From an uncultured Methanosarcinaceae archaeon (GTDB lineage Archaea > Halobacteriota > Methanosarcinia > Methanosarcinales > Methanosarcinaceae): DNA of 64,000 bases. Each line of letters starts with the position of its first letter. The first letter of the stretch is position 1. The notes under the pieces were generated by a model. That model ran no database searches. It was not told the DNA's origin and saw only the letters and a list, made by a program, of their open reading frames with translations. A program made the translations under genes and the position numbers. Where the stretch lies: contig CAVSHT010000011.1 of the NCBI GenBank assembly GCA_963727895.1, forward strand, positions 128,001 through 192,000. Reading direction: 5' to 3'. This document shows positions 13,990 to 54,035 of this stretch, one piece after another.

Positions 13990-14445
13990 TCTTCCCAATC
14001 CACACCTCTCTTTGCTGCTACTATGTTGTAGTTGCGCTCAAGAATTTGTGCTATTACTTTTCTCTGATAGTCAGCGTCATGTGCTGCTAAGGCTTTTTTG
14101 TCAAGTTGTGTGCCATATATCTGTTTAGTGAGTATTGCAGATCTTGAAATTCCGGTGTTGGCTGTGATTTTGTCCAGTGCTTCGGAATATTCAGCTGCCC
14201 TTCGTACGGTTTTTTCTTCTATGTTAAACTGATCAGCTATTACTTTGGATGTTCTTATGGGTGGGACATTTTGTCCCACCCTATCTAGACTGTTATTTGT
14301 GAACTGATTTTCACCCAGAGCTTTCTTTTCTGCTAGATACCTTCTTCCAATCAAATCAGTCTTGGTGACATCGTTAATATTCCTTCTACCAAGCTGGTTT
14401 TCAATAATCCAAATGTAAGCCGCCGATCTTGAAGGGAAATCTTGT
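13990..14445 (-). pseudogene. Partial ParB-like HTH cassette B
   Basis: WIIENQLGRRNI...DLIGRRY...GQNVP...IADQFNIEEKTVRRAAE; lacks the N-terminus; palindrome 14259-14281. Confidence 0.8.
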
Positions 14446-14461
14446 TTAATTGTAACAAAGT

Positions 14462-14703
14462 GCTGTAATAGTGTCTATTGCTTCTGTTAATTCGGTTGCT
14501 CTTGATACTGTACCTGTACCAACTTTTAACTGGGCTGCAATTTTTTCTCTAGTTGATTTACTTTCGCTAACTTGCCCATTTTGGGCAAGTTTGTCTCTAG
14601 GTAATCCTGTTTTATTGCCTTCTTCCTTCTTTTCTACTTTGTATCTTCTTCCTATCAAATCATTTCTAGTGATACTGTTTATGTTTCTGCGTGCAAGTTG
14701 ATT
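14462..14703 (-). pseudogene. Partial ParB-like HTH cassette A
   Basis: Flanks nearly identical to 52727-52758 and 52877-52952 with a different middle; palindrome 14569-14591. Confidence 0.85.
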
Positions 14704-14844
14704 TTAAATTAGTACTGCTGCTTACCTAGATTGCTTAGTATACACAGACACACCATAGGTGTGTTTATCAATGCAGTAAAAAACAATATCCTTTTTATAC
14801 TGGATTAAAGACGTTTTAGACCTTTATTTTTAAAAACAAAATTA

Positions 14845-15162
14845 AATACCCAAAAGTCCCAAAAATCCCCAAATAATCCCATTTATTTCCAAAAGAATCA
14901 GTAGCGGTAGAATTGTTCTCCCAAAAATGCCCAAAAATGCGAGAACAAAAAAATACGCACACATTTTTCTTATGTATATAAGAAATATAACTTCTTCAAT
15001 TTTTTAAATGCACACACATTTTTTTTCTCTCCCTTTTTCCCATTTTTGGGTAAATAATTAGTTTGTATTTTTTTTAATGCCTCTAGTAGATTAATATGAG
15101 AATTTATGAATGGGTAAATAATGGGAAATAAATGGGATTATTTGGGGATTTTTGGGACTTAA
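14845..15162. other. Candidate replication origin
   Basis: Perfect 37-bp inverted repeat 14854-14890 / 15124-15160 built from CCCAAA-like units around an AT-rich core, near prim-pol/helicase. Confidence 0.55.
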
Positions 15163-15254
15163 TTTTTTTAAGGCTTGTTTTTTAAAATAGAGTTCTAATC
15201 TCCCTCGGAATAATTAGTAGACATTTCTGCAATTGATCTAATTTTAAAACATAT

Positions 15255-15722
15255 TCGTGAACAGGTAAGTCAGAAATTATTGCAGATAAGTTAAAAGTAG
15301 GCTCTAGAACAGTAGAGTGAGCAGCCGAATTACCCCTCGTAACAGATAAAATCGTAGCCACCACAGGCATAACCTGTAATGATATTCTCTCAGGGAAAAT
15401 AGACGGCATGCAAGACGAAATTAAAGACCTTGCTGAAAAGGATGAAAGATCACAAAAAAGAATAATTGATCTCATACTTAACGAAGGAGAAGTAAGTCTA
15501 GCAGTTGCTTTTGACAGGTTGTGGGATGAACAGCAGGAAGAAAGACGAAAAGAAACAGAAGAAAAAGAAAGAACTGAACAGAAACGGCTGCATACCGTGT
15601 TGGAGAAGGGATTTATTCCCCTCTCTTCGGCTAAATATATTTTTAATTTTCGTGTCCGTGTAGTAAATAATATATTTTACTGTGATATATACCTTATTAC
15701 ATTTAATTCATTTTTATATTAA
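15255..15722 (+). pseudogene. Partial ParB-like cassette E (HTH plus coiled coil), opposite orientation
   Basis: KSEIIADKLKVGSRTVE*AAE...DKIVATTGI aligns with the other copies; in-frame stop. Confidence 0.7.
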
Positions 15723-15988
15723 TTTGTGTTTATTTTAAACAGTTACACATTTTTCGGGCATTTAAGCTGTTTTTCGCTACAACGTAGAATTTTCGTCTCT
15801 TTTTGCAGGCATGGGCAAATATTCCAATCACACGAGAACTCCTCCGAGTTTGACGTGGTGGTATGTGGTTAATTGGAATCCAGCTGTTCTGAGAGCAAAA
15901 CTCTGTGTGCACAGAATAAAAATAGAGTAAAGGGTACTAGGGGTAAGAAATCTTCTCCTACCCCTTTTAGCCGTGTATTACCACTAAT

Positions 15989-16237
15989 TCATGGCATTAG
16001 TATTGTTGGTATACTGGCTTCTTCTTCACTACTTAACAGTGTGTGGCATGTTACCCGTGTGTTCACCAATTGGCTCACTGGGATTACATTTCTTCCCCTA
16101 CTATGCCACCAGTGAGGTATATTTGGGCAGTCGTGTAACTCTGGTAATCTGTGCTCTACGCAAAAATTTTCACCACATCGTTTGCATTTAAACGGCAATG
16201 ACTGGATCCTTTCACCACATGTTTCACATTTTGTCAT
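15989..16237 (-). CDS. AN1-type zinc-finger protein, possibly truncated
   Basis: CETC...LPFKCKRCGENFCVEHRLPELHDC. Confidence 0.75.
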   Translation of the reverse strand: MTKCETCGERIQSLPFKCKRCGENFCVEHRLPELHDCPNIPHWWHSRGRNVIPVSQLVNTRVTCHTLLSSEEEASIPTILMP

Positions 16238-26082: not shown

Positions 26083-26768
26083 GGCATCACCTTTTCACAA
26101 AATACAGTAAAATAATTTTCAGTAACGTTTATTCCGTTTTCATCACAAAGAACAGCAACAAGTTTACCCCTCCCACGATTACGACCCGTACCAGCTCTCC
26201 TGAAAGCTTTTATGCAAGCTGCTAACAAAGGTAGATCCAAACCAGATGGATCTTTTGTAAACGATAATTTCGCCTCAAATGATGTTTCCCTAAGCACTAC
26301 CCTCATTGAACGTAGAGATCTTTTTTTAGGTGCTCCTGATTTTTCGTCAATCGAAGTTTGACGACGAATAGAAGTCAGAGAATTCAGTATATCTTCACTA
26401 CTTAATCTCATTGAGCTGCGAGATTTTTCAAGCTCGTATGCGACAGTTTTTCTCAAATCCGCTGGCAAAGTGGCATTACTTATGTGAAGTATAGCTTTAT
26501 CTGAATCACTGCTTCCGGGATTTCCAAAAAGGTGTTGGGAAGATTCATAGAATTCTTCTTGGAATTTCACGTCATGATTTTGTTCATTTAAGGAAAAAAG
26601 GATGTTTGCACACTCTTCTTCAAGCAAGCCTTTCAGAGTTCTCCCGTTCAAAAAAGGTAATCCACATTTGTCATGCATTACTTCTACATCGACCAGACCC
26701 GCTAAACCGTCTCCCCTACCAAAAGTTGAGTCACTTTTTATAGTAAATTTTAACCAGAATGTTTTCAT
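26079..26768 (-). CDS. csm3: Cas7 (Csm3-like) RAMP
   Basis: GLPFLNGRTLKGLL; GTGRNRGRG Gly loop. Confidence 0.85.
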   Translation of the reverse strand: MKTFWLKFTIKSDSTFGRGDGLAGLVDVEVMHDKCGLPFLNGRTLKGLLEEECANILFSLNEQNHDVKFQEEFYESSQHLFGNPGSSDSDKAILHISNATLPADLRKTVAYELEKSRSSMRLSSEDILNSLTSIRRQTSIDEKSGAPKKRSLRSMRVVLRETSFEAKLSFTKDPSGLDLPLLAACIKAFRRAGTGRNRGRGKLVAVLCDENGINVTENYFTVFCEKVMP

Positions 26769-28454
26769 TTTCTGCCCCCTTCAAGCTGAACAAAAAAATC
26801 GAGAGCTTCAATTGCATCAAAGCAAGTACAAGTATTATCAACCCAGCCTGTTTTGTCAGATTCTTCGTTGTTTTTTATTTTAGGGAGTGGCTGTTCTTTT
26901 GGAAGCGAGTCATTATATATTTTTATGAATTTTTCAACTTCATGGGGTCCATTACGTAAAACCTCTCTAAGGCGCATGATTTTGTTATGTTTACCCTCCC
27001 ATTCTTCACCCTTGAATTTTGAAATAATTTCTTCAAAAGTGTTCCAGGAGCACCAGTCTGTTCCTACGGATTCTCCAAGGCGTAATGGACGCATGTTTAA
27101 ATTGCCACATATTTCTGATGAGCCTTCTTTCCATTTGATTGTATATTCACGCTTTCTAATGTTCTCAATACTTTCAATTACTCCACTAGAAGCAAAGTGC
27201 CAATCTATGGCAGAAATTTTTCCTTCTTCAGAAGGAGATGCTTTTTCAATTCCTTTTATACGTGATTTCGCGGATTCTGCCAAGTTGTTTGCCAGTTTTA
27301 AAGCTTGGTAAAATGGATAATGAGTTTTTACAATAGCTATTCCAGCTCTAGCAGAGATCGGATGTCCATCGCTCAACTTCTTGTCCTTGGATGTCAATTG
27401 GCGTAACAGTAATTCAGAAAGAGTTAATCCCAATCGTCCGTCGCAAACAAAAGTTATATCATCGCCACCGAAGACAATTGGTCGGAAAGGTAATTTATTT
27501 TGGAATTCTACTAACCCCCCCAATTTTGCATATTCCTTCTTCGTCTTTTTGAGATTCAAGCAACCTAACTATGGCATTTCTGATTGCCTTACTACTTGCT
27601 TCTTCAATTGAATCCGAAAGAGCACGAATAGAATTTATGTATTCACGGTTGTCTTTCCAATGTCTTTTTGAATATTCTGAAATTCTTTTTCCCATTCCAT
27701 TTCCATCGATATGAACAACAGCAATGTAACTAGACTCATTTTTGGAACCGATTTCATTGAAATCATATACAAAATCTATACCACGATCTTTTTCATCCTT
27801 ATTTAGAAATTTGTTGCAAAGTCTGTCATTAGATGAACGGAAAAAATCCAATTTTGTAGATATCTCTCTCGAAACCCTAATTTCTGTTCCATCATCTTTT
27901 CTAGTCTCATCTTTTCTAGTCTCGGAAGCTGGAAGACCCGTATACTGACAAGAAGCATTCACCCCAATTCCAAGAAGAGGGGATGAGTGAATATAGTTGT
28001 ATTTTTTTTGTGTTATTTTTTTATGGAGAGTTTCCCTTACTGTTTTTTCAAGGGTATCTAGGTTATCTTTATCCCATATGAAGTTGTTATGAGCGATAAT
28101 TAACTGTAAGCCTGGTGCTTTTAAAAGAACTTTTTTAGTATATTCTCGTGTAAATTTTTTGGCAAGATCCTGGTTCTTGAATAAAATTACATTGTTTCCT
28201 CCCCCAGAATAAACAAGCTCGGAATCCAAATCATCTTTCTCAATCTTTTTATTGTTTAATGTTCTAGAGTTTAAATCCAGATTAGTTTTTTCTATATTAG
28301 TCGTTCCAATTTTTTTCAATTCCTCATAGACCATTTCATGGGTTACAAAATTAACCAGTCCAGAGGCCCCAACGTTCTGTTTCAGGTTGTTGCTTCCAAA
28401 AATATAATCTTGGATCCCAACAGTATCTATGACTGTGACTGTGAATTCTGTCAT
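26765..28454 (-). CDS. cas10: Cas10, HD-less, GGDD intact; frameshift near 27500-27560
   Basis: DTVGIQDYIF, YSGGGN, HIDGNGMG, FGGDD. Confidence 0.9.
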
Positions 28455-32596: not shown

Positions 32597-35500
32597 GTTT
32601 CAATCCTTGTTTTAGTGGATCTTGCTCACGAATCCTTCACTTTTTCCCATTGTCAACGGACTTTGTAGGTTTCAATCCTTGTTTTAGTGGATCTTGCTCA
32701 CGAATTGTTAACGAAACTATCATGCACAAAATATACCCTGTATGTTTCAATCCTTGTTTTAGTGGATCTTGCTCACGAATATGTAAAAGGGCAGATAATA
32801 TCCAGACTATACGTCCTCGTTTCAATCCTTGTTTTAGTGGATCTTGCTCACGAATTATAAGTTTGTGCGTTAGCTATTGAAATCAATGAAAGTTTCAATC
32901 CTTGTTTTAGTGGATCTTGCTCACGAATCCAATCTTGTGAGGTTTAATTCCCACATATTGTAGGTGTTTCAATCCTTGTTTTAGTGGATCTTGCTCACGA
33001 ATACAAATTTTACATATTTTGTTTTGGAAGATTTTAAAGTTTCAATCCTTGTTTTAGTGGATCTTGCTCACGAATTAATATTAGGAGTTACGATCCCGTG
33101 TGCTGACAAGTGTTTCAATCCTTGTTTTAGTGGATCTTGCTCACGAATATTGCTACCCCTTACCAAAGGTCTAGCAAAAAATGTTTCAATCCTTGTTTTA
33201 GTGGATCTTGCTCACGAATAACTGCTAAACTTGCTATAGATGCTATTAGAAATGGTTTCAATCCTTGTTTTAGTGGATCTTGCTCACGAATAAATGAGAA
33301 GTTCGGTTCGGGCTTATATATTTTATAGTTTCAATCCTTGTTTTAGTGGATCTTGCTCACGAATCTACAAATCCCCAACTTGCGCAAGGGCTTCCAGATT
33401 TGTTTCAATCCTTGTTTTAGTGGATCTTGCTCACGAATCGTTTTTTGTTCAAAAGAGTTATCTAATTTATTTGTAGTTTCAATCCTTGTTTTAGTGGATC
33501 TTGCTCACGAATAGATGTTTGAAAAGTAGCTGTTTCCTTGTGGGATGTGTTTCAATCCTTGTTTTAGTGGATCTTGCTCACGAATACTTAGCCATCTGCT
33601 CTTGTGTTTTGCCCTCTGCAATGTTTCAATCCTTGTTTTAGTGGATCTTGCTCACGAATGGTGACGGTTTCGTTGAGGGATGATGGCACAGTCTGAGGTT
33701 TCAATCCTTGTTTTAGTGGATCTTGCTCACGAATTCCGAAATCACCATCTGGATCATCTACCCATACTTCAGTTTCAATCCTTGTTTTAGTGGATCTTGC
33801 TCACGAATTCCGAAATCACCATCTGGATCATCTACCCATACTTCAGTTTCAATCCTTGTTTTAGTGGATCTTGCTCACGAATTCCGAAATCACCATCTGG
33901 ATCATCTACCCATACTTCAGTTTCAATCCTTGTTTTAGTGGATCTTGCTCACGAATTAAGTAAATGAAATCATCAAATGGCATTCTAGAACTATGTTTCA
34001 ATCCTTGTTTTAGTGGATCTTGCTCACGAATATGCTAAAGAAATCATGGCAGTAATGCAGGTTTACGGGTTTCAATCCTTGTTTTAGTGGATCTTGCTCA
34101 CGAATGCTTCTACAATTATTCCCTCTTTGGTTCTATAGCGTTTCAATCCTTGTTTTAGTGGATCTTGCTCACGAATCAGTGCATAACCATAATTGTTTAC
34201 AAAAGTGTTATTGGTTTCAATCCTTGTTTTAGTGGATCTTGCTCACGAATAAAGAATATCCAGCCTCATGTAGCTATTACATGGAAGTAATGTTTCAATC
34301 CTTGTTTTAGTGGATCTTGCTCACGAATTGACGGCATGTTTTTTGTTGAGTTAACAGGATCTAAGTTTCAATCCTTGTTTTAGTGGATCTTGCTCACGAA
34401 TATATTCCGATGATTGGGGGGATACATGGTATTTGGGTTTCAATCCTTGTTTTAGTGGATCTTGCTCACGAATATATAATATTCAAAATTAAAAATTGTG
34501 ATATCTATATGTTTCAATCCTTGTTTTAGTGGATCTTGCTCACGAATAGTGAAATGTCCGAGGGTGGCAGCGAAATAGTTTAGTTTCAATCCTTGTTTTA
34601 GTGGATCTTGCTCACGAATTATAAAAAATACTTCAGGCGGTGTAGACATCTGTCCAATGTTTCAATCCTTGTTTTAGTGGATCTTGCTCACGAATTCAAC
34701 ATATAACAAAGATATTGTTGAGGCATTTGGGTAGTTTCAATCCTTGTTTTAGTGGATCTTGCTCACGAATGGATGTTAGCCAGAAACTTGCGGTCTCGTG
34801 GAATAAGTTTCAATCCTTGTTTTAGTGGATCTTGCTCACGAATGGATGTTAGCCAGAAACTTGCGGTCTCGTGGAATAAGTTTCAATCCTTGTTTTAGTG
34901 GATCTTGCTCACGAATCATTGAATGGACATGAATCTCAGAAGGGGTATTGGTTTCAATCCTTGTTTTAGTGGATCTTGCTCACGAATACATGCACATCTA
35001 GGATACAAACAATCCGTACACAACTGTTTCAATCCTTGTTTTAGTGGATCTTGCTCACGAATATCATCCCAATCCAGTTCCCAATTTCAGTTTTGTTTCA
35101 ATCCTTGTTTTAGTGGATCTTGCTCACGAATAATATGCTCCATAATACAATATTCTTTTAATCATGTGTTTCAATCCTTGTTTTAGTGGATCTTGCTCAC
35201 GAATAAAAAGGGTATGCGTTTACCTTTCTGGAAACCCGATGTGTTTCAATCCTTGTTTTAGTGGATCTTGCTCACGAATATGCAAGAGCCACCTAGGATT
35301 AATTGATAAGTTGGTTTCAATCCTTGTTTTAGTGGATCTTGCTCACGAATAGGTGCCCTTGCTATTACCGCGATGGGCTTTTTTATGTTTCAATCCTTGT
35401 TTTAGTGGATCTTGCTCACGAATGATTATTCATGGACTTCTGAAGGAGTTGATAAATTTGAGTTTCAATCCTTGTTTTAGTGGATCTTGCTCACGAATTC

Positions 35501-38500
35501 TGCGAGTACCCATTGCCCTAGAATATATCTTTTGGTTTCAATCCTTGTTTTAGTGGATCTTGCTCACGAATCGCAAAAAGATAGGAGATTAACGACTATG
35601 CAGAGAAGTTTCAATCCTTGTTTTAGTGGATCTTGCTCACGAATCAAAATAAGAAAAGACACTGTAATTGTAGAAATGAGGTTTCAATCCTTGTTTTAGT
35701 GGATCTTGCTCACGAATTAATTGAAAGCGAAAACTATACCATTTCAATCCAAGAGTTTCAATCCTTGTTTTAGTGGATCTTGCTCACGAATCTCTCCTTT
35801 AAGAAATTCCGGCATAACATTTTTTACATAAAACTGTTTCAATCCTTGTTTTAGTGGATCTTGCTCACGAATAAGTCTGTTAATTATTGTTTCAAGTGTC
35901 ATTTGTTGTTTCAATCCTTGTTTTAGTGGATCTTGCTCACGAATGTTACTGGGTTTGTTGCATTTGAGGTTGGCTGTAGGTGTTTCAATCCTTGTTTTAG
36001 TGGATCTTGCTCACGAATTCTATTAGGATACTCTCATTCATATGCAATAGAGCGAGACATGTTTCAATCCTTGTTTTAGTGGATCTTGCTCACGAATCAA
36101 TCGTTCCAAACATCATACAATATTGTAAAACAAAGTTTCAATCCTTGTTTTAGTGGATCTTGCTCACGAATCAGATTATAGTTTTTGAATCAGAGGGAAG
36201 TATATTGTTTCAATCCTTGTTTTAGTGGATCTTGCTCACGAATACATAGAACCATATTGGTTTTGCGTTCCGATAACTGGTTTCAATCCTTGTTTTAGTG
36301 GATCTTGCTCACGAATTTGTATACATTTGTATTTGTGTGTAACAGAACGGTGCAGTTTCAATCCTTGTTTTAGTGGATCTTGCTCACGAATCTTTGCTCG
36401 TTCTTCTAGTCTACCCTTTAGTTCTGAGTTTCAATCCTTGTTTTAGTGGATCTTGCTCACGAATAATATCAAGGTTCCTGGAAAGAAGGTCCACTTCCAA
36501 TGTTTCAATCCTTGTTTTAGTGGATCTTGCTCACGAATAATTAAAGCGTTTATGTATCTGGCTCCGTTGATTGATAGTTTCAATCCTTGTTTTAGTGGAT
36601 CTTGCTCACGAATGCAGAAAATTATTTGATGAACAAAAATATCCTGGGTTTCAATCCTTGTTTTAGTGGATCTTGCTCACGAATTGTTTATCAGGTCACA
36701 AAAGAAGAGTGTATGACGTTAGTTTCAATCCTTGTTTTAGTGGATCTTGCTCACGAATGTAAATTAGGAGGAAAACAAAAGATGGAAACTTTAAGTTTCA
36801 ATCCTTGTTTTAGTGGATCTTGCTCACGAATGTTGCGTCGTAATCTCCGGCTGCAATGCCATAACCGTTTCAATCCTTGTTTTAGTGGATCTTGCTCACG
36901 AATAATAAGTCCAGTCGTCCTATTCCAATAACATCTTCTGTTTCAATCCTTGTTTTAGTGGATCTTGCTCACGAATCAGGCTTCAGCATGTGGGGTATCG
37001 TTCCATTCGGGGTTTCAATCCTTGTTTTAGTGGATCTTGCTCACGAATAAGTAATTATTATGCATCTAGATATGGAGTGAAAGTCGTTTCAATCCTTGTT
37101 TTAGTGGATCTTGCTCACGAATCCAATGACGACGATTTACCCACATTGATGTTAAAACTATGTTTCAATCCTTGTTTTAGTGGATCTTGCTCACGAATAA
37201 TAGAACCTGAATGTATTCAGGAATACCAACATCGGAAGTTTCAATCCTTGTTTTAGTGGATCTTGCTCACGAATAAGATGAAAAATTGAGACCGACTTCG
37301 AATGCATTGTTTCAATCCTTGTTTTAGTGGATCTTGCTCACGAATAACATGTGCTGATACCTCATCGGGGTCATCCATCTCAAGTTTCAATCCTTGTTTT
37401 AGTGGATCTTGCTCACGAATGCTCATATGAAATTGAGACAAAACGCAGAGGTTGGTTTCAATCCTTGTTTTAGTGGATCTTGCTCACGAATTGCACATTT
37501 ACCCTGTATGGGAGTTATAATTCTAATTGTTTCAATCCTTGTTTTAGTGGATCTTGCTCACGAATTCATGCATTGTGGCTAGAAAACGCAAAAGAAGCAA
37601 GTTTCAATCCTTGTTTTAGTGGATCTTGCTCACGAATTAGCTCAAAAAATCACAAAACGTTGTCCTTCTTGTAAGTTTCAATCCTTGTTTTAGTGGATCT
37701 TGCTCACGAATACTTCAATTTTCATTTTCAACATCTCCTTTCCTGTTTCAATCCTTGTTTTAGTGGATCTTGCTCACGAATTAGGTGCCCTTGCTATTAC
37801 CGCGATGGGCTTTTTTATGTTTCAATCCTTGTTTTAGTGGATCTTGCTCACGAATATTATCTTCAAAATTCGCTCGAAATGAAATTCCTAGTTTCAATCC
37901 TTGTTTTAGTGGATCTTGCTCACGAATACACTTTTTCAATGCTATTAATATTTCCTCATCTGGTTTCAATCCTTGTTTTAGTGGATCTTGCTCACGAATT
38001 AAGTAAATGAAATCATCAAATGGCATTCTAGAACTATGTTTCAATCCTTGTTTTAGTGGATCTTGCTCACGAATTATCATATTGGCGTTTGAATAGTTTC
38101 CAATGCAGATGTTTCAATCCTTGTTTTAGTGGATCTTGCTCACGAATCAGGATTCTAGTTTAAGATACAGATCTGCGGCGGTTGGGGTTTCAATCCTTGT
38201 TTTAGTGGATCTTGCTCACGAATTTCTATTTTCTATAATCCGTATTATAGTTTCTAGTTTCAATCCTTGTTTTAGTGGATCTTGCTCACGAATAGATGCA
38301 TATAACTCCTTATGTTTCGGTGGATCTTTTGTTTCAATCCTTGTTTTAGTGGATCTTGCTCACGAATACTTTGTCCTCTTTTAATAGTACCATCACTATC
38401 CATGTTTCAATCCTTGTTTTAGTGGATCTTGCTCACGAATAAGATTTCAAGCGGAAGGAATAAGAAACGATTGTAGTTTCAATCCTTGTTTTAGTGGATC

Positions 38501-41500
38501 TTGCTCACGAATTTGAAGTATTTAATACGTATAGACAGTCTCTAATTGCGTTTCAATCCTTGTTTTAGTGGATCTTGCTCACGAATGGATCTTGGACGTT
38601 TAAGACTGCTACCGTAAAATCTTAGTTTCAATCCTTGTTTTAGTGGATCTTGCTCACGAATATGTCCGCATTAGGAGATAATAGACTCAATCAGTCTAAG
38701 TTTCAATCCTTGTTTTAGTGGATCTTGCTCACGAATTAGGATCCTTCAGAACGAAGGTGTTAATGCAACAATGTTTCAATCCTTGTTTTAGTGGATCTTG
38801 CTCACGAATTATTTTAGTACCTTTAAACAAATCTCTAATTGATTTGTGTTTCAATCCTTGTTTTAGTGGATCTTGCTCACGAATTGTGAGCGTTTTTTTC
38901 AAATTCAGGGACTGAGTAGGTTTCAATCCTTGTTTTAGTGGATCTTGCTCACGAATACAAACACCCTAATTGCTGTTATTGATACTTATAAACTGTTTCA
39001 ATCCTTGTTTTAGTGGATCTTGCTCACGAATCGAAGTTAAAAGAATTGATGAAGAAATATCCCGAAATCGGTTTCAATCCTTGTTTTAGTGGATCTTGCT
39101 CACGAATCATGATGTGTGGAATGTTGACCCTTGACAGTGCAAGTTCGTTTCAATCCTTGTTTTAGTGGATCTTGCTCACGAATCAATTACTCTGTTTCCA
39201 GCTCCAGTATTACTCACCGCGGTTTCAATCCTTGTTTTAGTGGATCTTGCTCACGAATCCAGCAGCGTACAGTGTCATAGATGATGCCTGCAAGAGTTTC
39301 AATCCTTGTTTTAGTGGATCTTGCTCACGAATACGTATGAGTTGGATATTGACACGCAAACCTAGGTTTCAATCCTTGTTTTAGTGGATCTTGCTCACGA
39401 ATTTATTAGAAAAATCCATTAACTCTTCAAAGCTCAAGGTTTCAATCCTTGTTTTAGTGGATCTTGCTCACGAATCTCTTTTGTAGTCGAAATGAGCTTA
39501 CCATATGCATTAGGTTTCAATCCTTGTTTTAGTGGATCTTGCTCACGAATGATTGGACTGGGACAGCAGCAGGAACTATTTGGGTGTTTCAATCCTTGTT
39601 TTAGTGGATCTTGCTCACGAATTGAATACGGTACTTTCAACATTCAGTATGCTCTGTCGTTTCAATCCTTGTTTTAGTGGATCTTGCTCACGAATCCAAT
39701 GTAACTTTATATTTGATTTAGAGAGATTATGTTTCAATCCTTGTTTTAGTGGATCTTGCTCACGAATCCAGCAGCGTACAGTGTCATAGATGATGCCTGC
39801 AAGAGTTTCAATCCTTGTTTTAGTGGATCTTGCTCACGAATAGGACGAACGAAAATTAATGAAAGATATTGAAATGTTTCAATCCTTGTTTTAGTGGATC
39901 TTGCTCACGAATGAAGCCGATGGGTTAGAAGAAACTATTCAAAAAAGTTTCAATCCTTGTTTTAGTGGATCTTGCTCACGAATTATTAGAAGAATGTTTA
40001 GGATCAACCTGTTGAAATATGTTTCAATCCTTGTTTTAGTGGATCTTGCTCACGAATATGAAAGTACAGGAGCGAGGTCTACACTTCGCAGGAGTTTCAA
40101 TCCTTGTTTTAGTGGATCTTGCTCACGAATTATCAACGATATGTTGAACTTCTGGAACAATCTTGTTTCAATCCTTGTTTTAGTGGATCTTGCTCACGAA
40201 TTTTGTTGGCAGCAAATGATAGCGCGTCGTCAATTGGTTTCAATCCTTGTTTTAGTGGATCTTGCTCACGAATGAATCAAATCAGAATTTGAGTCTCTTG
40301 TTAAATTTGAAGTTTCAATCCTTGTTTTAGTGGATCTTGCTCACGAATATTTCTTGCTATATACTACAATAACACTAATAGTGTTTCAATCCTTGTTTTA
40401 GTGGATCTTGCTCACGAATTCCGTACTCCGTGGTAAAACGGATGCTGAGTTAGTGTTTCAATCCTTGTTTTAGTGGATCTTGCTCACGAATTCCAATGGA
40501 ACGATGACGTTTTAAAAGAAATCCCTGATGTTTCAATCCTTGTTTTAGTGGATCTTGCTCACGAATTTTTTGATAAGCCTCTTGAATTCAAAGAATGGTT
40601 TGAATATCGTTTCAATCCTTGTTTTAGTGGATCTTGCTCACGAATAGACATTTACAGCCTCCTTAGATCCCTGATGCAGCGGTTTCAATCCTTGTTTTAG
40701 TGGATCTTGCTCACGAATTTAAAACATGGAATTAACTCTCAACGATAATGTAACGTGTTTCAATCCTTGTTTTAGTGGATCTTGCTCACGAATCAGGATA
40801 CCCGTTGCTTTAGCTGCGGGAGGAATGCGGTTTCAATCCTTGTTTTAGTGGATCTTGCTCACGAATACTCTAAAATAGAAGATATCAAAGCCATGAATGA
40901 GTTTCAATCCTTGTTTTAGTGGATCTTGCTCACGAATCTTAGATCCGTGATTGATATATTGGTTGTAGGAGTAGTTTCAATCCTTGTTTTAGTGGATCTT
41001 GCTCACGAATAAGACACAAGCTGAATTATGGAATCAGAGGGCATTGTGTTTCAATCCTTGTTTTAGTGGATCTTGCTCACGAATTTCACTGGACTTGAGG
41101 GAATTGACGACAAGGGACATAGTTTCAATCCTTGTTTTAGTGGATCTTGCTCACGAATTTGTATTTAGATTGCGTAGGATTTTGAAGGTGAAGTTTCAAT
41201 CCTTGTTTTAGTGGATCTTGCTCACGAATTGGATACCTCAAGTATTAGTACAGAAGGGGAATCTGGTTTCAATCCTTGTTTTAGTGGATCTTGCTCACGA
41301 ATTTGCGGCTTTAACAATTGAAATTATCCCATTGATAGGTTTCAATCCTTGTTTTAGTGGATCTTGCTCACGAATCTCTCAAAATTGAAACAATTGTGTT
41401 TAGAATTTGATTGTTTCAATCCTTGTTTTAGTGGATCTTGCTCACGAATCCGGTTCAATCCCGGATGACCAGACCTATAGTTACTGTTTCAATCCTTGTT

Positions 41501-41522
41501 TTAGTGGATCTTGCTCACGAAT
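32597..41522 (-). CRISPR. Main segment: ~120 repeats of ATTCGTGAGCAAGATCCACTAAAACAAGGATTGAAAC
   Basis: Invariant 37-bp repeats, ~73-bp period (count estimated from span); orientation from the ATTGAAAC 3' handle and leader position. Confidence 0.98.
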
Positions 41523-44387: not shown

Positions 44388-46822
44388 ATATCATGCTGGA
44401 CTTTAATTCAAAAACAAAACCGGTTTCAGGATCATAATAATGTTTTATTTGTTCAAAAGGAATATATCCTATATTGAGATCCTCTAGTTCTTCACAGGAA
44501 AAGTCTTTTTTAGGCACCGAGATGATGTATTCATTGAATTTTTTCCTGATGGACAGGAATTTCTCTTTTCGATCCAGTGGATTTTTAAGAGATTTCATTA
44601 CAATGTATTCTTTCCATATTTCAGCCGCTTCGTTATCATTTTCTACAAATACATCTATTTTTTCGTATCCTGTTTTGTCATCTATTAACCTGAAATCGGA
44701 TGTAAGAGTTTTAAATTTAAGCTCATTTATGTATGAGAGTAGCTCTTTGGACTCATCTTCACTTGAAGTATCTTTAACTTTCCTGAAATAGTTGTTATTT
44801 AAAAAGAGCAGGTCTTTTTCATAAATTTCAGAGGGGAGGTCTTTCAACACTTCTTTTGTTTTGTCAATTAGAAAACTCGAATATATATATCGATGAAACT
44901 CTTTCCTTTCATCTTTCAGAACCACAATGTTTACTTGTCCTCGAGAACTCTTGGAAGAATTCCTGTTACATCTCCCTGAAACCTGATTTATTGAATCAAT
45001 TGTGGCAAAATCCCTGTAAACAACATCTACGTCGATATCTACTCCGGCTTCTATAAGCTGAGTGCTAACAATAATTTTTCTTTTTTCCGACTTTTCTTTG
45101 ATTTCCTTAATTTTTGTAAGCCTTTCTTTTGGAATAATGTTAGTAGAAAGATAATAATAATCACTATTTTCAAGTTCTAAATTCTTTAAATGATTAAATA
45201 CCTCAAGCGAAGATTTAAGAGTGTTCAATACAAACAAAAAATCTTTTTCGGAATTATTTTTTACTTCAGATTCAATTATTTCCTTGAAATGATCCATATC
45301 CATCGGATTCAGGTTTATATTCAGCTTAACTCGATCAAATTCCCTGAAATACGTATCTTTATTTTTTACCAGCTCAACAATTTCTCCCTTTTCAGGATCA
45401 AAAATGAGAGGTTGAGTTGCTGTTACAAAAATGAAGTACGTATTAAAATATTCTGCAAAACCCGAAATGATCTGTTTTAACAGTAGCCAGTACTTATGAG
45501 GAATTGACTGGATCTCATCAAGTATTACAATCGAATTTGCAATTGTATGAAATTTTCTGAGTGAGCGATTTTTATTAGACACAATTGTGTGGAAAAACTG
45601 GACAAATGTAGTTACGATTATCTCAGAGTTCCACCCCTCAATTAAAAATAAACCTTTAAGCCCTTCAAATTCTTCATCGTCTTGCGTTCTATAAAATATA
45701 TCTGCAAGGTGATGATGTTTAAGTAGCACTTCCTCAGAAGGATTTGCGGTCTCAACTGTTTTAAAAACATCTTCAAAAACATCGTAGTTCTGGTCTATTA
45801 TACTCAAAAAAGGTAGAGAATAAATTATTTTTGCTTTGATTCTCTTTTCCTCTCTTAATCTTGCTTTCAATTTTAATGCAAACGAAAGTGATGTGAGAGT
45901 TTTTCCCGAACCTGTAGGGACACTTATTGAATATATTTTATTATTAAGATCAAGTTTCTCAATACTTTCTGTAACTTCCTCATAAATCTCGTTACGTACT
46001 TTATTCATTATACCTTCACTATTTTGGAAACCCTTTTCTACCTTATACTTATCCACAAGTTCAGGTGAAATTTCGATTTCACTGGAAACATCAATAGAAG
46101 ACGCATCTATCTTATCAGAGTTTATAAGAATTGAGTATAGAGTTAATGTAATTAAATAATAGCCTGTAAATTGCTCCTTCTTGAGCAATTTTATGAATTT
46201 CCTTCTATTTTTTAAAATTTCGTTAGCTATGGAACGGTATTCATTGCAGAAAGTGTCGATGTCAAAAGAAATATCATACCCATCTAGTAACTTTTCATAT
46301 ATTGTTTTTAATTCACTTGTATCTAATGACTTTATTTGAAGATCAATAATTTCAAGAGTATCTTCATCTATAATTCTCGTATTTCATCCTCAGCATCTTT
46401 CAGGTTTCCATGATGCCTTTTTACAATGAGATATCCTATGATAGGAGTATATTCCAGAATATTTTTATCGTTAAGCGAATCTACATACTTTTTTAATATG
46501 TAATAGGTAAAAATAGCTGATATCAAGGCCATGATGATATTCTTTTTTATTTTTTAAGCCCCTCTGTATGGAAGGATCTAGTCTCAAAAAGATATCTTTG
46601 AAAATACCTTGTGCCTTTCCCAAAATCGTGACAAACACCTATAAGAAATGTTATTTTTGAAAAAGTATTTTCATCAATTCCAAACTTTTCCAGTGATAAT
46701 CTTTTCTCCCTGCTTGTCGAGATAGATTTGTTTCCTACATTGGATAAATGTTTAAATAGTATTTTATCGGGATGGGAATAAAGATGGAAATCACATGAAG
46801 ACAATTCCTTCTCCATTCTCAA
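44380..46822 (-). CDS. cas3: Cas3 (HD nuclease + SF2 helicase), frameshifted in the HD part
   Basis: SHP...HL, CHDFGK, PTGSGKT, DEIQ, STQLIEAGVDID, GRCNR. Confidence 0.92.
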
Positions 46823-47493
46823 GCCTCCAGAGATTATTTACATTCGCAAGAATGCATTTTGCATTTTTTTCAAACAAAACTTTGCCGTATTCTGTAACTT
46901 CCCTATTAGGAAGCATTTCTATTGGAATAGTCTCTGAAAAATACTCTTTTCCTTCTTCAAAATTGATTTTTATTAGCTCTTTTTCGGGAATTACAGAATG
47001 AATTTCCCTTTCAGAGTCTGAAAGTTCACTGACAGCCTCCATTTCTCCTATAAATTCATAATTGGCAATGTGTTCACTCAGACCGAGGCACAGAGTATAC
47101 ACCGACTTGTGCTCTTTTAACATAGAGTAAAGTTTGTTATATACTTCTTCCGAAGAATGAGAAAAATAAATCCTGTATCTTACATCTTTTAATACCTCGA
47201 ATCTTATCTGAGTTCTGGTCTTTATTCTGCTCATCATGGGAGCAATTTTGGTGTCGATTAAATTTTCTGCAATTCTGGTCTTTTTGATAGGACAGACCTA
47301 TTTTTACTGCAATATTTGCATCTTCTTTAGATAAATACTGCAGATACTCATCTTTTCCAAACCCCTCTATAGCACCAATCATTCCAGCAATAGCTGTTCG
47401 AGGAGGAATAGAATATGTAAGGGGAGAAGTTGTAGTATAGTGTTTTCGGAAATGACCGAATTCTCCCCATACATCGAACACTAATACTTTCAT
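46791..47493 (-). CDS. cas5: Type I-B Cas5 (frameshifted)
   Basis: FDVWGEFGHFRK...PPRTAIAGMIGAI; YTLCLGLSE. Confidence 0.9.
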
Positions 47494-47502
47494 GTTCTTA
47501 GC

Positions 47503-48487
47503 TCACATTGATAATTTTTCAGTATTAATCCCGGCTTCATTAAGGCTCTTTTCGAAGTCAGTCTCTTCTCCGCCATATGTGAACATAAGAGACCCGTCCA
47601 GACAAATCTGGATATTTTCAATCTTGTCTTTGTTTTTAGCCAGTATCATCAACCAATCTCTGGACATCAATCCTCTACCTGTGAGATATCCCGAATCTCT
47701 TCATCAATCAAATCAGACTTTAAGACTGAAAAGGTTGTTCAGATCCCCAATGTGATAATTTCCCTCTTTGTAGTTTACTTTCAACAGGAGACGGGGAACC
47801 TGGCCGACTTTTGACCTGGAAATCAGGTTCTTAGTTCCATTCCACATTCCATCAAGAAGCAGATCTACATCTTCCTCTGAAAGTTTCGTATCCTTTGCCG
47901 CATTTTCATTAATAATTCCGTAAAAACTTATCAAAGAATAGGGTAAGAAATCCTCTTCACGGAACGTTTTCTGACTGGCTCCTTCCTTTGAAGCAAAAGC
48001 TCCTGTTCCACGGAAATGTTTCATGAAGACTTTATGCATTGATCTACCGATCTTAAACTGTACAGGACCAGTATGAGTTATTGAACCTGTTTCTTTTTCC
48101 CCTTTCTTGACTTTAAGTTCAAGTGGAACAGTTCCACCAAATAAACGAACGTCAATACAATCAGCCAGAAGATTTCTCATTTATGGCACTTTTACCAGTT
48201 TCGAATGAATCAAGAGTCTCTTCAGTTGTCAAAAAATCTCTTGCTCTCATTTTTGCATCTTGAATAGAACCATTTTCATCTGAGATTTCTCTAACAAAAA
48301 TCTCTTTACCTCTAAACTTGTAGAGATGATCACGTATTGTTCTCTTAAGCCTGACATCTGTTACAAGGTTTATTCCTGTCTCTTCGTCAATCCGTGGTTT
48401 GTTTTCATCAAGTGGATCTCCGTTTGGATTTCCATCTTTTATATCATACAAAAATACAATTTCAGATCTTCTGTTTACTTCAGTCAT
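47503..48487 (-). CDS. cas7: Type I-B Cas7/Csh2 (frameshifted)
   Basis: NPNGDP..ENKPRID, TDVRLKRTIRD, DVRLFG, TGPVQF, SRSKVGQ. Confidence 0.92.
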
Positions 48488-50350
48488 TTTTAATCTCCTT
48501 TTCAGATTTAGGTGACTTTAAAAGGTTTGACAAATTCATACCAAGAACAAAATAGAAACTGATTTCATCGTTTGACATTTTCCAATTATTGCCAGATTGA
48601 ATCATGTATTTTGAGATCAGAGTATTCAAGTTCTTTATAATAATTAGCATCATACTCTTCGAGTTTATTTATGGTTTCAGGGAAGATTCTTTTTACATAA
48701 CGCTCATCAAGATTCAGGCCTCGAAGTTTAGTTCTAAAAGGAGTACTTCCACGCTGAAATTTTTGAATATTTAGTAAATACTGAACAAGTGCGCCTTCTA
48801 AAAAAATAGCCTTCTTTGCATCGGTATTGAAGAAATGTTCAAATTCCGAAAAGATAACATTTGTTCGTTCCTCATAACCATTGTTTTCCTTTGGTTCCAT
48901 GTCACTTAATAAAGTTGATAAATTCGTAGAATTCACACATTTACCTCCTGTATAATTTCCAAGCAAACATAAATTGACTTAAAAAATCTAACATTTGGAA
49001 TCCCAAAAACAGAGAATATCTTGTTGAATTTTCATTTCTGAAATCTTTTCTAATACGCTGCATAATATACTTTAACAGAAAATTATAATCAATGGAAGTT
49101 CCTGTAAATATCCCGTTTGTGATTTCTAAAAAGTACTTGTTTAAATCAGGGTCATCTAGAGTATTTGGGAAGAACCATCTTAAATTACCTAATGTGAATT
49201 GAATGGATTTTACTTCGGTATCATTAGAAAAATAGTTACTGAATATTTTTCTTTTGTCAACGATTTCTTTGGATTTGAAAAGCTCTCTTAACCTTGAAGG
49301 AAGAATGTCCTCGATATACAAAAGAATTCGATATGCCGAATTGGATTTTTCATAAAATTGGAAATTAAAATTAAGATAATTATCCTCTTCACTTAGAATT
49401 TCAAGGATATCGTTTTCATTAGTTGTTAAAAATCTTTTATAGTCCTTATTAAATGTAAATTTTTTCTCATTAAATTTCTCAAAAGTATCGAAAAGGTCCT
49501 CGTTAGTACTATTATTAAATAGCTTAGGGATAATGAGGAAATTGAACCCATAAAAACCAAAGGACATGTATTTTTCGATATATTCTTTTCCCGCTGTAAT
49601 TTTCAAGGCACATTCAAGGCAAATAGGATTATTTCTCCATGCCTTACTTTGGTCAAATCCTCCGCTAACAAATCCTCTTTTATCTACTGTATAGAATTCA
49701 TAAGGCGTAACGAAACCATAAACTTCATTATGTTTTTTACAAACCGAGCATAATTTATCATCGGCTTTAGAGATAATATCATATTTATTGTAAAACTTGG
49801 AAGCCCCATTGTTCTTAAGGATCTTACGAAATACTTCAAAATCTCCGACATATCTGATGAAGTCATTTTCTTCAAAAACTAAGGTTAATATCGAGTTCTC
49901 CTTTGAATCGATGGAATTAACTTTAGGTTCCAGATCTAAGAGTATTTTCTCTTCATTCTCTTTTATACACTTTCCAAGAAGCTCCAAAAATTGGACTTCT
50001 CCACTATCTAATATAGGCTTTGCTTCTTTCAAAGGCTTTGAGAACCAGCCTATAATCTTGTTAGAGAATGTTTTTTTGATTTCTGTGACTCGTGCAGTAG
50101 GAGTAATGTCTGGTCCATTAGAAGATCCTCTCTTATAGAGATATTTTATAATTTTCTCCTTTGAGTACTCCTGATGCTCAATTTCTTTAAACTCAAAATA
50201 ATCTTTGCAAGAAACTAACTTAATGCAAAATACATGTTTATAAGTTTCATTGCTCGCAGGGTTTTCAACTAGAATTGACACAAAATCATTTAAATCCTTA
50301 TTATCTTTTTCGAGTGCATACTCACCAATTTCTTTCATTGCTTCAATCAC
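48480..50350 (-). CDS. cas8b: Type I-B Cas8b/Csh1 (frameshifted)
   Basis: CSVC...FYTVDK.GF...PICLEC; C-terminal FLEGALV..LL..Q and NKLEEY. Confidence 0.85.
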
Positions 50351-51461: not shown

Positions 51462-51471
51462 GGCGATTAAA

Positions 51472-51780: not shown

Positions 51781-51818
51781 ACTCACAACTTATAACATAA
51801 TTTGACAGGGGATTAAAA

Positions 51819-52154
51819 GTGGAGTACCCAAAAAAGCTTATCTCACAGACGGAAGTTAAAAAAAGAGGGTGGACTGTTGAAATAATGAAGGAGCTTGGTT
51901 TAGAGTGCACAACTTTTGTCACAAACAGGCACAGACCAGACAGACCTGTAAAATTATTCTCAATTGAAGAAGTCACCAGCCTTGAAAAAACCGAGCAGTT
52001 CAAAAAAGCTTTTGAGCTGAACGAGGAAAAGAAAAAAGAGCGTCGTGCAAAGTCGGAAAAGAGCAAAGAGAAAAAGGCTGCACAATTGCAGAAACAGTGG
52101 GAAAAACTCAGGGTTAAACTTAGTACAGAAGGGCACATCCTTTTTCATGGATGA
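51819..52154 (+). CDS. Basic hypothetical protein
   Basis: RGWT motif and charged helix; in operon with AbrB. Confidence 0.55.
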   Translation: MEYPKKLISQTEVKKRGWTVEIMKELGLECTTFVTNRHRPDRPVKLFSIEEVTSLEKTEQFKKAFELNEEKKKERRAKSEKSKEKKAAQLQKQWEKLRVKLSTEGHILFHG

Positions 52155-52164
52155 GACAAAGTGT

Positions 52165-52305
52165 TGAAATTCAGCTGTCCTCCAAACTGTTATTTGATTA
52201 ACTCCTGCTTGCTTTGCAATTTTTTCACTTGTCTTTACCAAGTTATCATTTTGATAACTTGGAGAATTTGTTCTTTCCCACCCACCATGAGCTTTCTTTT
52301 CTGAT
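52165..52305 (-). pseudogene. Partial ParB-like HTH cassette D, out of frame at the 3' end of the full gene
   Basis: EKKAHGGWERTNSPSYQNDNLVKTSEKIAKQAGVNQITVWRTAEF; palindrome 52238-52262. Confidence 0.8.
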
Positions 52306-53592
52306 TTTTGCTTGTTCTGCAGCTGTTCTTGCTTTTTCTTCTGCTACTTTACGGGCATGTTCTATTAGCTCTAAACGCATTTCTTCTTCTTCTATGCGTT
52401 CTTTTTCAAGACGTGCTTTTTCAAGTTTTTCTTTTTCTTCTCGTTCTTTTTTTAGCCTTTCGCGTTCTGAGGCTAAGTTTTTTTCACGATTGAGCCTTGC
52501 TTCTTCTTCAAGCTGCTTTCTTTTTGCTTCCAGTTCTTCCATTCGCTTGGCAGTGTCTTCACGTTCAGTTTTTATTATTGCAGACTCAATGTCGTCTTTA
52601 TCTTGGATTACTTTTTCCATTGCCCTGATTTGAAATTCTTTGTCATGCTTTGCAAGGGCTGTTAAGTCTTCTTGATGATAGTTAATTTTTCTTGCAAGAA
52701 TTGTAGCTCTTGATATACCTGTGTTGGCTGTAATAGTGTCTATTGCTTCTGTTAATTCTTCTGCATAACGTACTTGTCGAGCGCTGATATTCATTTGATC
52801 TGCGAGTTTTTCATCTGTTTTAATCGAGTGGCAATTTTTGCCACTCGATAGTTTATACTCCAAACCTCCCCAAGCTTTCTTTTCTACTTTATACCTTCTT
52901 CCTATCAAATCATTTCTTGTGATACTGTTTATGTTTCTGCGCGCAAGTTGATTGTCAATAATCCATGCATATGCTTCATCTCTTGAAGCAAAGTTCTGCT
53001 CAATAGTTGTAAATTCAACGTTGTGCTTTTGGCATATATGATAACGGTTATGCCCGTCGATAAGGGTATTATTCCAAATGACTATCGGAAAGGCGGGGTT
53101 GAAGCCGTTTTCTACTATATTTTTCTCTAATCCCTCGTACTCTTCCTGAGTCAATGGAGGACGTAACGCTTCAAACTCAACATCTATTTTAAGCTCGGTT
53201 GATGCACTCCTAAACTGACGTGTGGAAAATCTCACTTGTTGTATATTCAATAGTTTTGTGGTGCTGTGTGTAAATAGCCTAAAAAGAATCATGTTGTTTG
53301 ATTCGTCAGGATAGGCTCTAATATCTTGCACTCTCTTGAATACATCAGATGAGACTCTAATTACCTTGTTCACAGGAGTGAACATAGGAATTTCAATCTC
53401 TTTTTCATCTATAAGTAGTATGAATTTTCCAGAACTTTTGATAATAGAGTCATTTGGTTTGTACTCGTCTAACATTGATGCAACAGTTGAGGATATTGAC
53501 ACAGCATCACTTTTGCAACTCATTAACATTTGTAGTACTTCATTTGAAACTCTAATTGTTTTGTCTTTATTCATATGATCCCTCGTATACAT
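52246..53592 (-). CDS. ParB-like protein: two RHH-like repeats, ParB N-terminal domain, HTH, coiled coil
   Basis: KTIRVS/KVIRVS repeats; PPLTQEEY..LE..I...G, LIDGHNRY; HTH LADQMNISARQVRYA; palindrome 52823-52849. Confidence 0.8.
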   Translation of the reverse strand: MYTRDHMNKDKTIRVSNEVLQMLMSCKSDAVSISSTVASMLDEYKPNDSIIKSSGKFILLIDEKEIEIPMFTPVNKVIRVSSDVFKRVQDIRAYPDESNNMILFRLFTHSTTKLLNIQQVRFSTRQFRSASTELKIDVEFEALRPPLTQEEYEGLEKNIVENGFNPAFPIVIWNNTLIDGHNRYHICQKHNVEFTTIEQNFASRDEAYAWIIDNQLARRNINSITRNDLIGRRYKVEKKAWGGLEYKLSSGKNCHSIKTDEKLADQMNISARQVRYAEELTEAIDTITANTGISRATILARKINYHQEDLTALAKHDKEFQIRAMEKVIQDKDDIESAIIKTEREDTAKRMEELEAKRKQLEEEARLNREKNLASERERLKKEREEKEKLEKARLEKERIEEEEMRLELIEHARKVAEEKARTAAEQAKIRKESSWWVGKNKFSKLSK

Positions 53593-53690
53593 ATGTATAC
53601 AACACTAAGGATATAAATTTTTGTATACACATGTATACACCTAGAATGATTAAAAATGTGTACACATATGTATACATATAAATGTATAGG
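53580..53690. promoter_or_regulatory. GTATAC/GTACAC-rich operator-like region upstream of the ParB-like gene
   Basis: About six GTATAC/GTACAC hexamers around TATA-like motifs. Confidence 0.5.
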
Positions 53691-53769
53691 CTCAAAAATG
53701 CGGTAAAAATTTCGCCATTTTGGCGGAGTTTTTGTCTATGTTTTGCCCACGTGGCCCACATTCTGACTT

Positions 53770-54035
53770 TTTGATCAGCTATTATATCTGCATTCTCAGA
53801 GGATCCCTCATTTTGAGGGATCCTATTTAGACTGTTTGCAGCAAATTGATTTGTCCCCCAAACATTCTTTGTTTCATTATACCACCTGCCAAGCAAATCA
53901 TTTCTTATGATATTGTTTATATTTCTCCTGCCAAGTTGGTTTTCTATGATCCACATCTTAGCTGCAGATCTTGAAGCAAAGTCCTGCTCGTAATCTTCCT
54001 GAGTCAGTGGCGGAATTAACTCTTCAAACTCTTGA
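53770..54035 (-). pseudogene. Partial ParB-like cassette C (internal deletion, cut in the HTH)
   Basis: EFEELIPPLTQEDY joined directly to QDFASRSAAKMWIIENQLGRRN; palindrome 53800-53824. Confidence 0.8.

Follow-up and report, generated by a model that had tools for sequence, protein, structure and literature searches.

Copies of a ParB-like gene and their palindromes

This study concerns a family of ParB-like genes with palindromes inside their coding sequences, which was noticed in a 64,000 nt stretch of DNA (in the following, the window) of an uncultured Methanosarcinaceae archaeon (assembly GCA_963727895.1, contig CAVSHT010000011.1, positions 128,001 to 192,000). An earlier reading of the sequence alone, the original prediction, had described one full and five partial copies of the gene, five of the six with a palindrome, and had proposed that each copy encodes the cognate site of its own helix-turn-helix (HTH) domain. 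Six copies, one intact and five partial, were indeed found, and the sixth, on the plus strand, is the one that lacks a palindrome. The copies are located as follows.

52246 to 53592, minus strand: intact gene, 448 aa, with an N-terminal domain (about residues 1 to 130), a predicted ParB N-domain (CTPase fold) with the motif DGHNR, a disordered linker, an HTH and a coiled-coil tail
52753 to 52821, minus strand: HTH of the intact gene, KTDEKLADQM NISARQVRYAEEL, directly downstream of palindrome 4
13944 to 14440, minus strand: fragment A, from about FPSRSAAYIW to the C-terminal end, without the ParB N-domain
14446 to 14700, minus strand: fragment B, from NQLARRN to AIDTITA, 62% identity to the intact gene
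about 15250 to 15722, plus strand: sixth copy, starting a few codons past the palindrome position, HTH with an internal stop, no palindrome
52160 to 52300, minus strand: fragment C, EKKAHGGW...SYQNDNL...GVNQITVWRTAEF, an out-of-frame fusion behind the intact gene
53771 to 54031, minus strand: fragment D, upstream of the intact gene, with the end of the N-domain, the linker and the palindrome, HTH cut off

A scan of the window bore out the coordinates and the TTT centres of all five perfect palindromes; the DGHNR motif of the intact gene and the HTH strings that had been quoted were also correct. The palindromes, to which no strand is assigned, are:

14259 to 14281: palindrome 1, arms of 10 nt, fragment A, core GGACA-AAA-TGTCC, HTH NIEEKTVRR
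14569 to 14591: palindrome 2, arms of 10 nt, fragment B, HTH KVGTGTVSR
52238 to 52262: palindrome 3, arms of 11 nt, fragment C, read S-Y-Q-N-D-N-L in its own frame, with the stop codon of the intact gene inside
52823 to 52849: palindrome 4, arms of 12 nt and a 3 nt centre, intact gene, encoding the linker residues S-S-G-K-N-C-H-S-I
53800 to 53824: palindrome 5, arms of 11 nt, fragment D

At all five sites, the centre is TTT on the plus strand, which is AAA on the coding (minus) strand, and it lies within CAA-AAT or AAA-AAT codons. The window contains 11 perfect palindromes with arms of at least 9 nt and a loop of at most 7 nt, and five of these are the sites in the ParB-like gene copies; with a cut-off of at least 10 nt for the arms, the numbers are six and five. 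The assignment of palindrome 3 to a gene copy was correct in that it lies inside fragment C, but the frame differs from that of the tail of the intact gene, the stop codon of which it contains. In the assembly (3.67 Mb, 19 contigs), 13 perfect palindromes with arms of at least 9 nt and an AAA or TTT centre were detected. Six of the 13 are inside copies of the ParB-like gene; the sixth has 13 nt arms and is located on contig C9, in a gene copy that is 65% identical. Every palindrome of the window is unique in the assembly, with the exception of one decayed remnant and one solo copy with a common core. The remnant (G000:C9:162207-162231) is a decayed copy of palindrome 5 with 3 mismatches, in which the centre has the opposite orientation to the coding sequence on either side (P-Y-F-E, not P-Q-N-E), as if it had been flipped. 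A similar flip, but with intact arms, was found in one relative (L215). The solo copy (G000:C5:178915-178943, 29 bp) is a perfect palindrome with arms of 13 nt and shares a 17 nt core with palindrome 3; no recognisable ParB-like gene was found around it.

The six copies most likely represent one intact allele and the remnants of other alleles that were left by mobile elements. The truncated copies are more simply explained as young pseudogene remnants than as working cassettes. The fragments retain open reading frames (ORFs) and a high identity, and because these persist, the perfect palindromes within the fragments require no separate selection. The older remnant elsewhere in the assembly has decayed. 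Several fragments begin or end near the palindrome position; to judge from the sequence, this would fit a fragility of palindromes, and for annotation it is a warning that such palindromes may be breakpoints. Residues 1 to 130 of the intact gene (53200 to 53592) are missing from most relatives and match proteins of 210 to 214 aa in other genomes of the genus with 25 to 29% identity.

Predicted fold of the protein

The intact protein matched 0 Pfam families at E ≤ 10, the Pfam ParB model being among those not matched, no relevant match was obtained with NCBIfam, and a profile search of PDB sequences returned a coiled-coil match only. In their source records, close relatives are labelled "ParB N-terminal domain-containing protein". 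An AlphaFold2 model was calculated for residues 130 to 345 of the intact protein, built with 13 relatives; the predicted local distance difference test score (pLDDT) was 87.5 and the predicted template modelling score (pTM) 0.80. A Foldseek search with this model retrieved Spo0J (1vz0), the pNOB8 ParB-N (5k5d), Noc, the ParB proteins of M. xanthus (MxParB) and C. crescentus, and KorB, and the matches covered both the CTPase-fold domain and the HTH. For 1vz0, 5k5d, 7ng0, 7o0n, 6t1f and 8qa8, the probability was 1.00, the E values ranged from 1e-5 to 1e-3 and the alignments comprised about 205 to 240 columns. The HTH was also tested, and the DNA-binding domain of Noc on its site (6y93_B) was matched with a TMt of 0.62; the model helices are residues 130 to 138 and 142 to 162.

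The motifs of the family are also present. The GxxR motif (box II) is DGHNR, residues 179 to 183, and in an alignment of 32 sequences, G180, H181, N182 and R183 were found in 90% or more. An ENxxR-like box, DNQLxRRN, was found, and the C-terminal tail is a Glu/Lys/Arg-rich, coiled-coil-like charged region, as seen from its sequence. On the basis of the model, the protein is thus predicted to be a ParB/Noc/KorB-fold protein with a CTPase-fold domain and an HTH, though it lies outside the curated sequence models. Phages and mobile elements often contain relatives, and many of these are fused to DNA methyltransferases (PF01555, PF05063, PF05869).

Palindrome 4 comprises about codons 249 to 257 of the intact gene, which are residues 120 to 128 of the model. 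The sole segment of the model with a pLDDT below 50 is formed by residues 116 to 127 (model numbering), overlapping these palindrome-encoded residues. Because the two stretches coincide, the palindrome lies in the DNA for a predicted disordered insertion just before helix 2 of the HTH.

Occurrence of the palindrome in relatives

DNA of relatives was obtained from viral contigs, metagenomes, species genomes, sister genomes and two named viruses. The set comprises 220 genes with distinct linker DNA among the matches listed, and there are about 1,600 further candidates (565 + 431 + 593). The 240 nt after the conserved QLxRRN box were taken as the linker segment, and 2027 segments of equal size from the same loci served as controls. 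A perfect palindrome with arms of at least 10 nt was present in 54 of the 220 linkers, compared to 36 of the 2027 controls, which is a 14-fold enrichment. When at least 12 of 13 positions were required to be paired, the numbers were 63/220 and 43/2027. For the first viral set alone, 29 of 72 linkers and 11 of 742 controls were positive. The share of relatives with a palindrome is only one quarter to two fifths. Absence of the palindrome from homologs in general had been named as a finding that would speak against the proposal; with a strong linker palindrome in only 54 of 220 genes, this applies by half.

The distribution of arm lengths was bimodal, with values either at background (4 to 7) or between 9 and 17, and the longest arms reach 17 nt. 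The symmetry axis is located 36 to 57 codons past the box (median 41), and one codon phase is common to 47 of 58 sites. The enrichment in the linker supports, in silico, the earlier claim that the palindrome has a conserved position beside the HTH. Many "negative" genes, e.g. that of Dulem virus 33, contain a palindrome with one mismatch. The cultured Methanoculleus virus Blf4 has a 20 bp palindrome at the corresponding place of a ParB-HTH-methylase gene, and it is unique in the complete 37 kb genome; likewise, the site of L094 is unique within its 26 kb record. The Blf4 gene belongs to a subgroup with a GAATTC-containing centre. In one locus (L257), a second copy of the same 12 nt half-sites with a different 3 nt spacer was found (1102 to 1128 and 1833 to 1859). 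One of the two is in linker-coding DNA; the extra copy precedes the start codon by 345 nt and is not part of any copy of the ParB-like gene.

Conservation of a DNA word of defined length

Twelve new close relatives with one and the same HTH (V[DN]EKTIRR) contain the core GGACA-nnn-TGTCC. It is read G-Q-N-V in seven of them and, in another frame, D-K-M-S in five. As the core is kept across two reading frames, it is the DNA word that is conserved, and not the Q-N peptide. A constraint on the peptide cannot enforce symmetry at synonymous positions. With unchanged arms, the coding strand can have AAA, TTT or a single nucleotide at the centre (L215 versus L036; L079 versus L081). The enrichment and the conservation of the core in two frames both argue that the symmetry is selected for, or otherwise maintained, at the DNA level, as had been proposed, and support this in silico.

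The length of the element was analysed with sites that were chosen only by a perfect inner 6+3+6 arrangement, which yielded 94 linker sites and 289 control sites. Positions 7 to 12 were paired in 66 to 84% of the linker sites, compared to 27 to 31% of the controls, and pairing was at background by position 14. This plateau with a subsequent drop shows that the element has a defined length of about 27 to 29 bp.

Coupled change of site and recognition helix

Certain HTH types recurred with certain site cores: x[DE][KR] with GGACA (including window copy 1), S[KR]N with CCCA, and SAR with G(G/T)(G/C)AA (including the intact window gene, L125, L223 and the Methanosarcina relative L008). In six gut-phage genes (L053, L058, L067, L088, L093, L110), the flanks are near-identical and the linker-plus-HTH cassette is hypervariable. 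L058 and L088 differ in one base per half-site and in all four recognition positions.

Site similarity was compared with protein similarity in two matrix tests. In the second one, the partial correlation of site similarity was 0.32 with the HTH, 0.13 with the upstream flank, which is closer, and -0.02 with the downstream flank. None of 2000 permutations reached the value for the HTH (p ≤ 0.0005), and the bootstrap 95% interval of the difference between HTH and upstream flank was 0.02 to 0.38; as the relatives are not independent of one another, this and all other p-values are liberal. Furthermore, 39 independent pairs of close relatives were evaluated. With the inner 4 nt of the site as the criterion, a definition that was picked after the rows for a 7 nt core had been seen, at least two changes at the four recognition positions were present in 1 of 16 pairs with the "same" and in 18 of 23 pairs with a "different" site (Fisher p ~1e-5). 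In this test, the change rate per position was 0.67 for recognition positions and 0.29 for the scaffold.

Interpretation and alternative explanations

It appears probable, with considerable room for doubt, that the ParB-fold/HTH protein encoded around each palindrome binds or loads there, the palindrome being its cognate double-stranded, parS-like site. The protein would bind the palindrome as a dimer, and the bound palindrome would serve as a parS-like loading site or as an operator. The site would reside in a disordered linker between the CTPase-fold domain and the HTH, where almost any codon may be tolerated, and, being located within the linker-coding DNA beside its reader, it would travel and diversify together with it. 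A clamping that depends on cytidine triphosphate (CTP) might be involved, and the complex could act in partition, in spreading or in self-repression by a roadblock; clamp loading once per genome and self-repression by roadblock would both be compatible with the gene context. The observation behind the original prediction holds; its main idea has support in silico, though it is unproven.

Besides the liberal p-values and the choice of the inner 4 nt after the fact, several results weigh against a cognate site. No perfect arm of at least 10 nt is present in 166 of the 220 genes, and fewer than 11 of 13 positions are paired in 128. A relocation of the site in palindrome-less loci was considered and rejected, as their 1.5 kb flanks contain no excess of palindromes (0.074 versus 0.099 per kb). 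A second copy in the examined flanks was found for only one of 58 sites (L257), and dispersed copies have to be discarded as well, the sites being unique in the genome of the window and in Blf4, which gives no support for anything like a regulon. Relatives with identical HTHs differ in their outer arms, which nevertheless stay complementary, and this fits a requirement for structure or a templated correction as well as a contact with protein. In the first matrix test (Mantel-type), the HTH "scaffold" followed site similarity more closely (r 0.41; partial correlation 0.37) than did five recognition positions picked by hand (r 0.17; partial correlation 0.15), and the independent contribution of the N-domain was nil (0.007). 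When the 7 nt core was used for the 39 pairs, the result was not significant (Fisher p 0.08) and confounded with divergence. Lastly, a rule that had been written down beforehand (R1: [DE][KR] at helix positions 2 and 3 predicts a GGACA core) held out of sample in 14 of 24 new genes and failed in 10, holding in 2 of about 6 lineages. It was fulfilled in 12/12 genes of one lineage and in 2/3 of another, and in none of the SEK, SDR-TVKN and [KG]ER-TL groups. Conversely, the GGACA core was found in no gene without the antecedent (5 rows were re-parsed by eye), and a second rule, R2, held in 1/1 case. This mixed outcome means that the pairing rules are lineage-specific, and a universal recognition code was therefore rejected. 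Covariation of arms and helices, which had been suggested as a check, was seen as coupled change and as a variable cassette within conserved flanks, but not as a simple universal code.

We regard it as possible, leaning slightly towards doubt, that orphan ParB-fold proteins of phages, plasmids and archaeal elements follow an old and widespread rule: a single loading site of about 27 bp in the DNA of their own disordered linker, next to the recognition helix, would make up a portable site-plus-reader module. Through coupled changes, this module would give rise to a large number of orthogonal specificities, which might keep elements residing together free of cross-talk. In that case, hundreds of natural protein-site pairs from which to read the ParB-type recognition code would be available in the family. 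Were the palindrome the cognate site, the majority of the orphan ParB-like proteins in the family would carry their target already annotated, and a very common, uncharacterised gene of phages and mobile elements would become a directly testable protein-DNA pair. The family would also represent a natural library of matched helix/half-site pairs from which the switching of ParB-type specificity could be read, and coding sequence would be used systematically to hold a protein's own cis site in a disordered linker. For annotation, it would explain long perfect palindromes inside ParB-like genes.

An alternative that we consider unlikely is that the palindrome forms a folded structure, either a cruciform or hairpin of the DNA or a stem-loop of the mRNA, which is read by its shape and not by the adjacent HTH. 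It might be a replication or priming signal, a pause of transcription or translation, or a processing site. The long and perfect arms and the kept complementarity of the outer arms would be explained in this way, as would pairing to about position 12, which exceeds the typical 8 bp half-site of ParB, and the genes are located in replication and recombination modules. In an aligned set, 330 cells had changes on both sides; as this set was picked for being palindromic, its percentage of paired cells is circular, and it was used for the types of pairs only. Against this, wobble pairs are not preferred on either strand. The 25 single internal mismatches comprise 4 G.T, 6 A.C and 15 that are not wobble-capable on either strand, and in the aligned set 11 of 75 non-Watson-Crick cells are G.U. 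As wobble pairs are not in excess, there is no sign of an RNA-type tolerance on either strand. In addition, 18 of 58 perfect sites have centres of 0 to 2 nt, which are poor hairpin loops, and on wobble counts and loop sizes an RNA hairpin is not favoured. Furthermore, the inner bases follow the recognition helix, the centre can flip its strand, and no copy of the gene surrounds the extra site in L257.

That the palindrome is instead the site of another protein appears quite unlikely. Candidates would be a second ParB-like protein encoded directly downstream in many phages, a host factor, or a DNA methyltransferase or restriction system that is fused to the protein or encoded beside it. In favour of this, among 58 neighbouring ORFs scanned, a second, shorter ParB-like gene (phrog_1033, about 260 aa) is located directly downstream in 15 loci and often overlaps the gene end, fusions to methyltransferases are frequent, and the subgroup with the GAATTC-containing centre includes Blf4. 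But the intact gene of the window has neither a downstream second ParB gene nor a methylase domain, the coupling is with the protein's own HTH, and the arms are much longer and more varied than methylase targets.

Very improbable, finally, is a short ancestral inverted repeat without function that template-switch (quasi-palindrome) correction kept perfect and lengthened, and that was passed on with the nearby HTH through linkage alone. In its favour, the disordered linker is tolerant, fragments and the gene-less solo remnant retain perfect arms, and site similarity also correlates with the adjacent flank. Against it, the position is conserved across phages, bacteria and archaea together with the 14-fold enrichment, pairing ends sharply at about 12 to 13 nt after a plateau and does not decay gradually, the core is kept across reading frames with an unchanged HTH, the coupling with the HTH is stronger than with the closer flank, and the older remnant does decay.

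Comparison with known systems

The family is similar to ParB-parS in the two-domain fold, the GxxR motif (DGHNR), the ENxxR-like box and the HTH with a candidate palindromic site, and in L223 a ParA-like gene is present upstream. ParB-parS is a CTP-dependent clamp that is loaded at a palindromic centromere. In contrast, no ParA was found among the scanned ORFs of the window, and only one scanned locus has it; a disordered insertion splits the DNA-binding region of the window protein, and its candidate site of about 27 bp lies in its own coding sequence. One B. subtilis parS is located inside spo0J.

BisD of ICEclc is a ParB-like CTP-binding clamp of a mobile element that has no role in partition (PMC12409273). 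Its sites, bisS, are 23 bp palindromes with 11 bp arms and an odd centre inside the genes inrR and ssb (PMC12409273). The likeness consists in a ParB-like protein of a mobile element, in a similar arm size and in intragenic sites. Differently from the window family, bisS is not inside bisD, the BisD protein possesses an activator domain and has BisC as its partner, and a family-wide coupling of site and helix is not among the features described in the available parts of the source (PMC12409273). ParZ of Borrelia burgdorferi is a centromere-binding protein, possibly phage-derived, that "binds its own coding region" according to chromatin immunoprecipitation sequencing (ChIP-seq) (PMC9712426). 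What it has in common with ParB is only a ParB-like N-terminal peptide, and the accessible text gives no palindrome and no linker position (PMC9712426).

KorB with OB and Noc with NBS, both proteins being among the Foldseek matches, are further members of the ParB family whose short palindromic targets serve purposes other than partition; these targets are dispersed in many copies, whereas the window family has one copy per element. In phage lambda, it is the linker-coding part of O that holds ori-lambda, and O and ori come in matched pairs in lambdoid phages. The location of ori-lambda is reported to be inside gene O (PMC6022878) and that of oriV inside repC (PMC9040568), so that both resemble the proposed arrangement of the window family in having the cis site of a DNA-binding protein within that protein's gene. 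However, lambda O and RepC are replication initiators of other folds, and they use iterons instead of one palindrome.

Phage methylase fusions and archaeal HTH forms are listed in a 2025 survey of the ParB-CTPase fold; the string "palindrom" does not occur in its main text, and its supplements may bear on this point (PMC12704722). The available parts of PMC13229309, PMC4442127 and the HerB preprint have no bearing on linker palindromes. Our literature search did not turn up any account of a palindrome that is shared across this ParB-like family in its linker-coding DNA. The statement that no description was known nevertheless has to be softened, as ParZ, bisS, ori-lambda and oriV are precedents in part.

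Genomic context

The original prediction had treated positions 13990 to 54035 as one feature. This was not upheld, as the region from 19.4 to 50.4 kb between the two clusters of ParB-like copies is a CRISPR-Cas locus (19474 to 50350). The clusters are remnants of mobile elements that flank this unrelated locus, and the left one closes an integrase/primase-polymerase/helicase element at 9.0 to 13.9 kb. The locus contains genes of type III (RAMPs, pieces of Cas10, a Card1-like CARF nuclease) and type I-B (Cas3, Cas5, Cas7, Cas8b) systems, Cas4/Cas1, and an array of 122 repeats of 37 nt (32597 to 41522); a reverse transcriptase adjoins Cas6b. Targeting of the ParB-like copies or of the fetched relative loci by this system was rejected, because 121 spacers gave only chance matches of 16 to 21 nt.

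No ParA-type family was found among the 53 window ORFs that were scanned with Pfam, and among 58 scanned ORFs neighbouring relatives a ParA-like gene was present next to one, L223, directly upstream. The usual neighbours of relatives are genes for replication and recombination (DnaB-like helicases, primase, RecT or Erf), and in Dulem virus 33 the gene directly follows a repressor/cro pair. The loci with a downstream phrog_1033 gene are:

L036, L039, L045, L046, L049, L053, L058, L063, L072, L088, L094, L110, L136, L152, L251

In these loci, a MazF-like gene is often located upstream.

A different, 8 nt palindrome, TGTATACA, is present in 8 copies in the window, compared to 0.67 expected. Four copies are clustered within 83 bp directly upstream of the intact gene (53594 to 53676), and two (10216, 10914) are found in the left element, between its integrase gene and its primase-polymerase gene. 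Going by sequence, these copies are candidate operators of another regulator that would be common to both elements. Several genes in the window are split into adjacent ORFs (5791 to 8970, 46547 to 50350, 26765 to 28454), namely a class I tRNA synthetase (three ORFs), cas7, cas8b, cas5 and cas10, which suggests frameshifts that arose by decay or by assembly errors.

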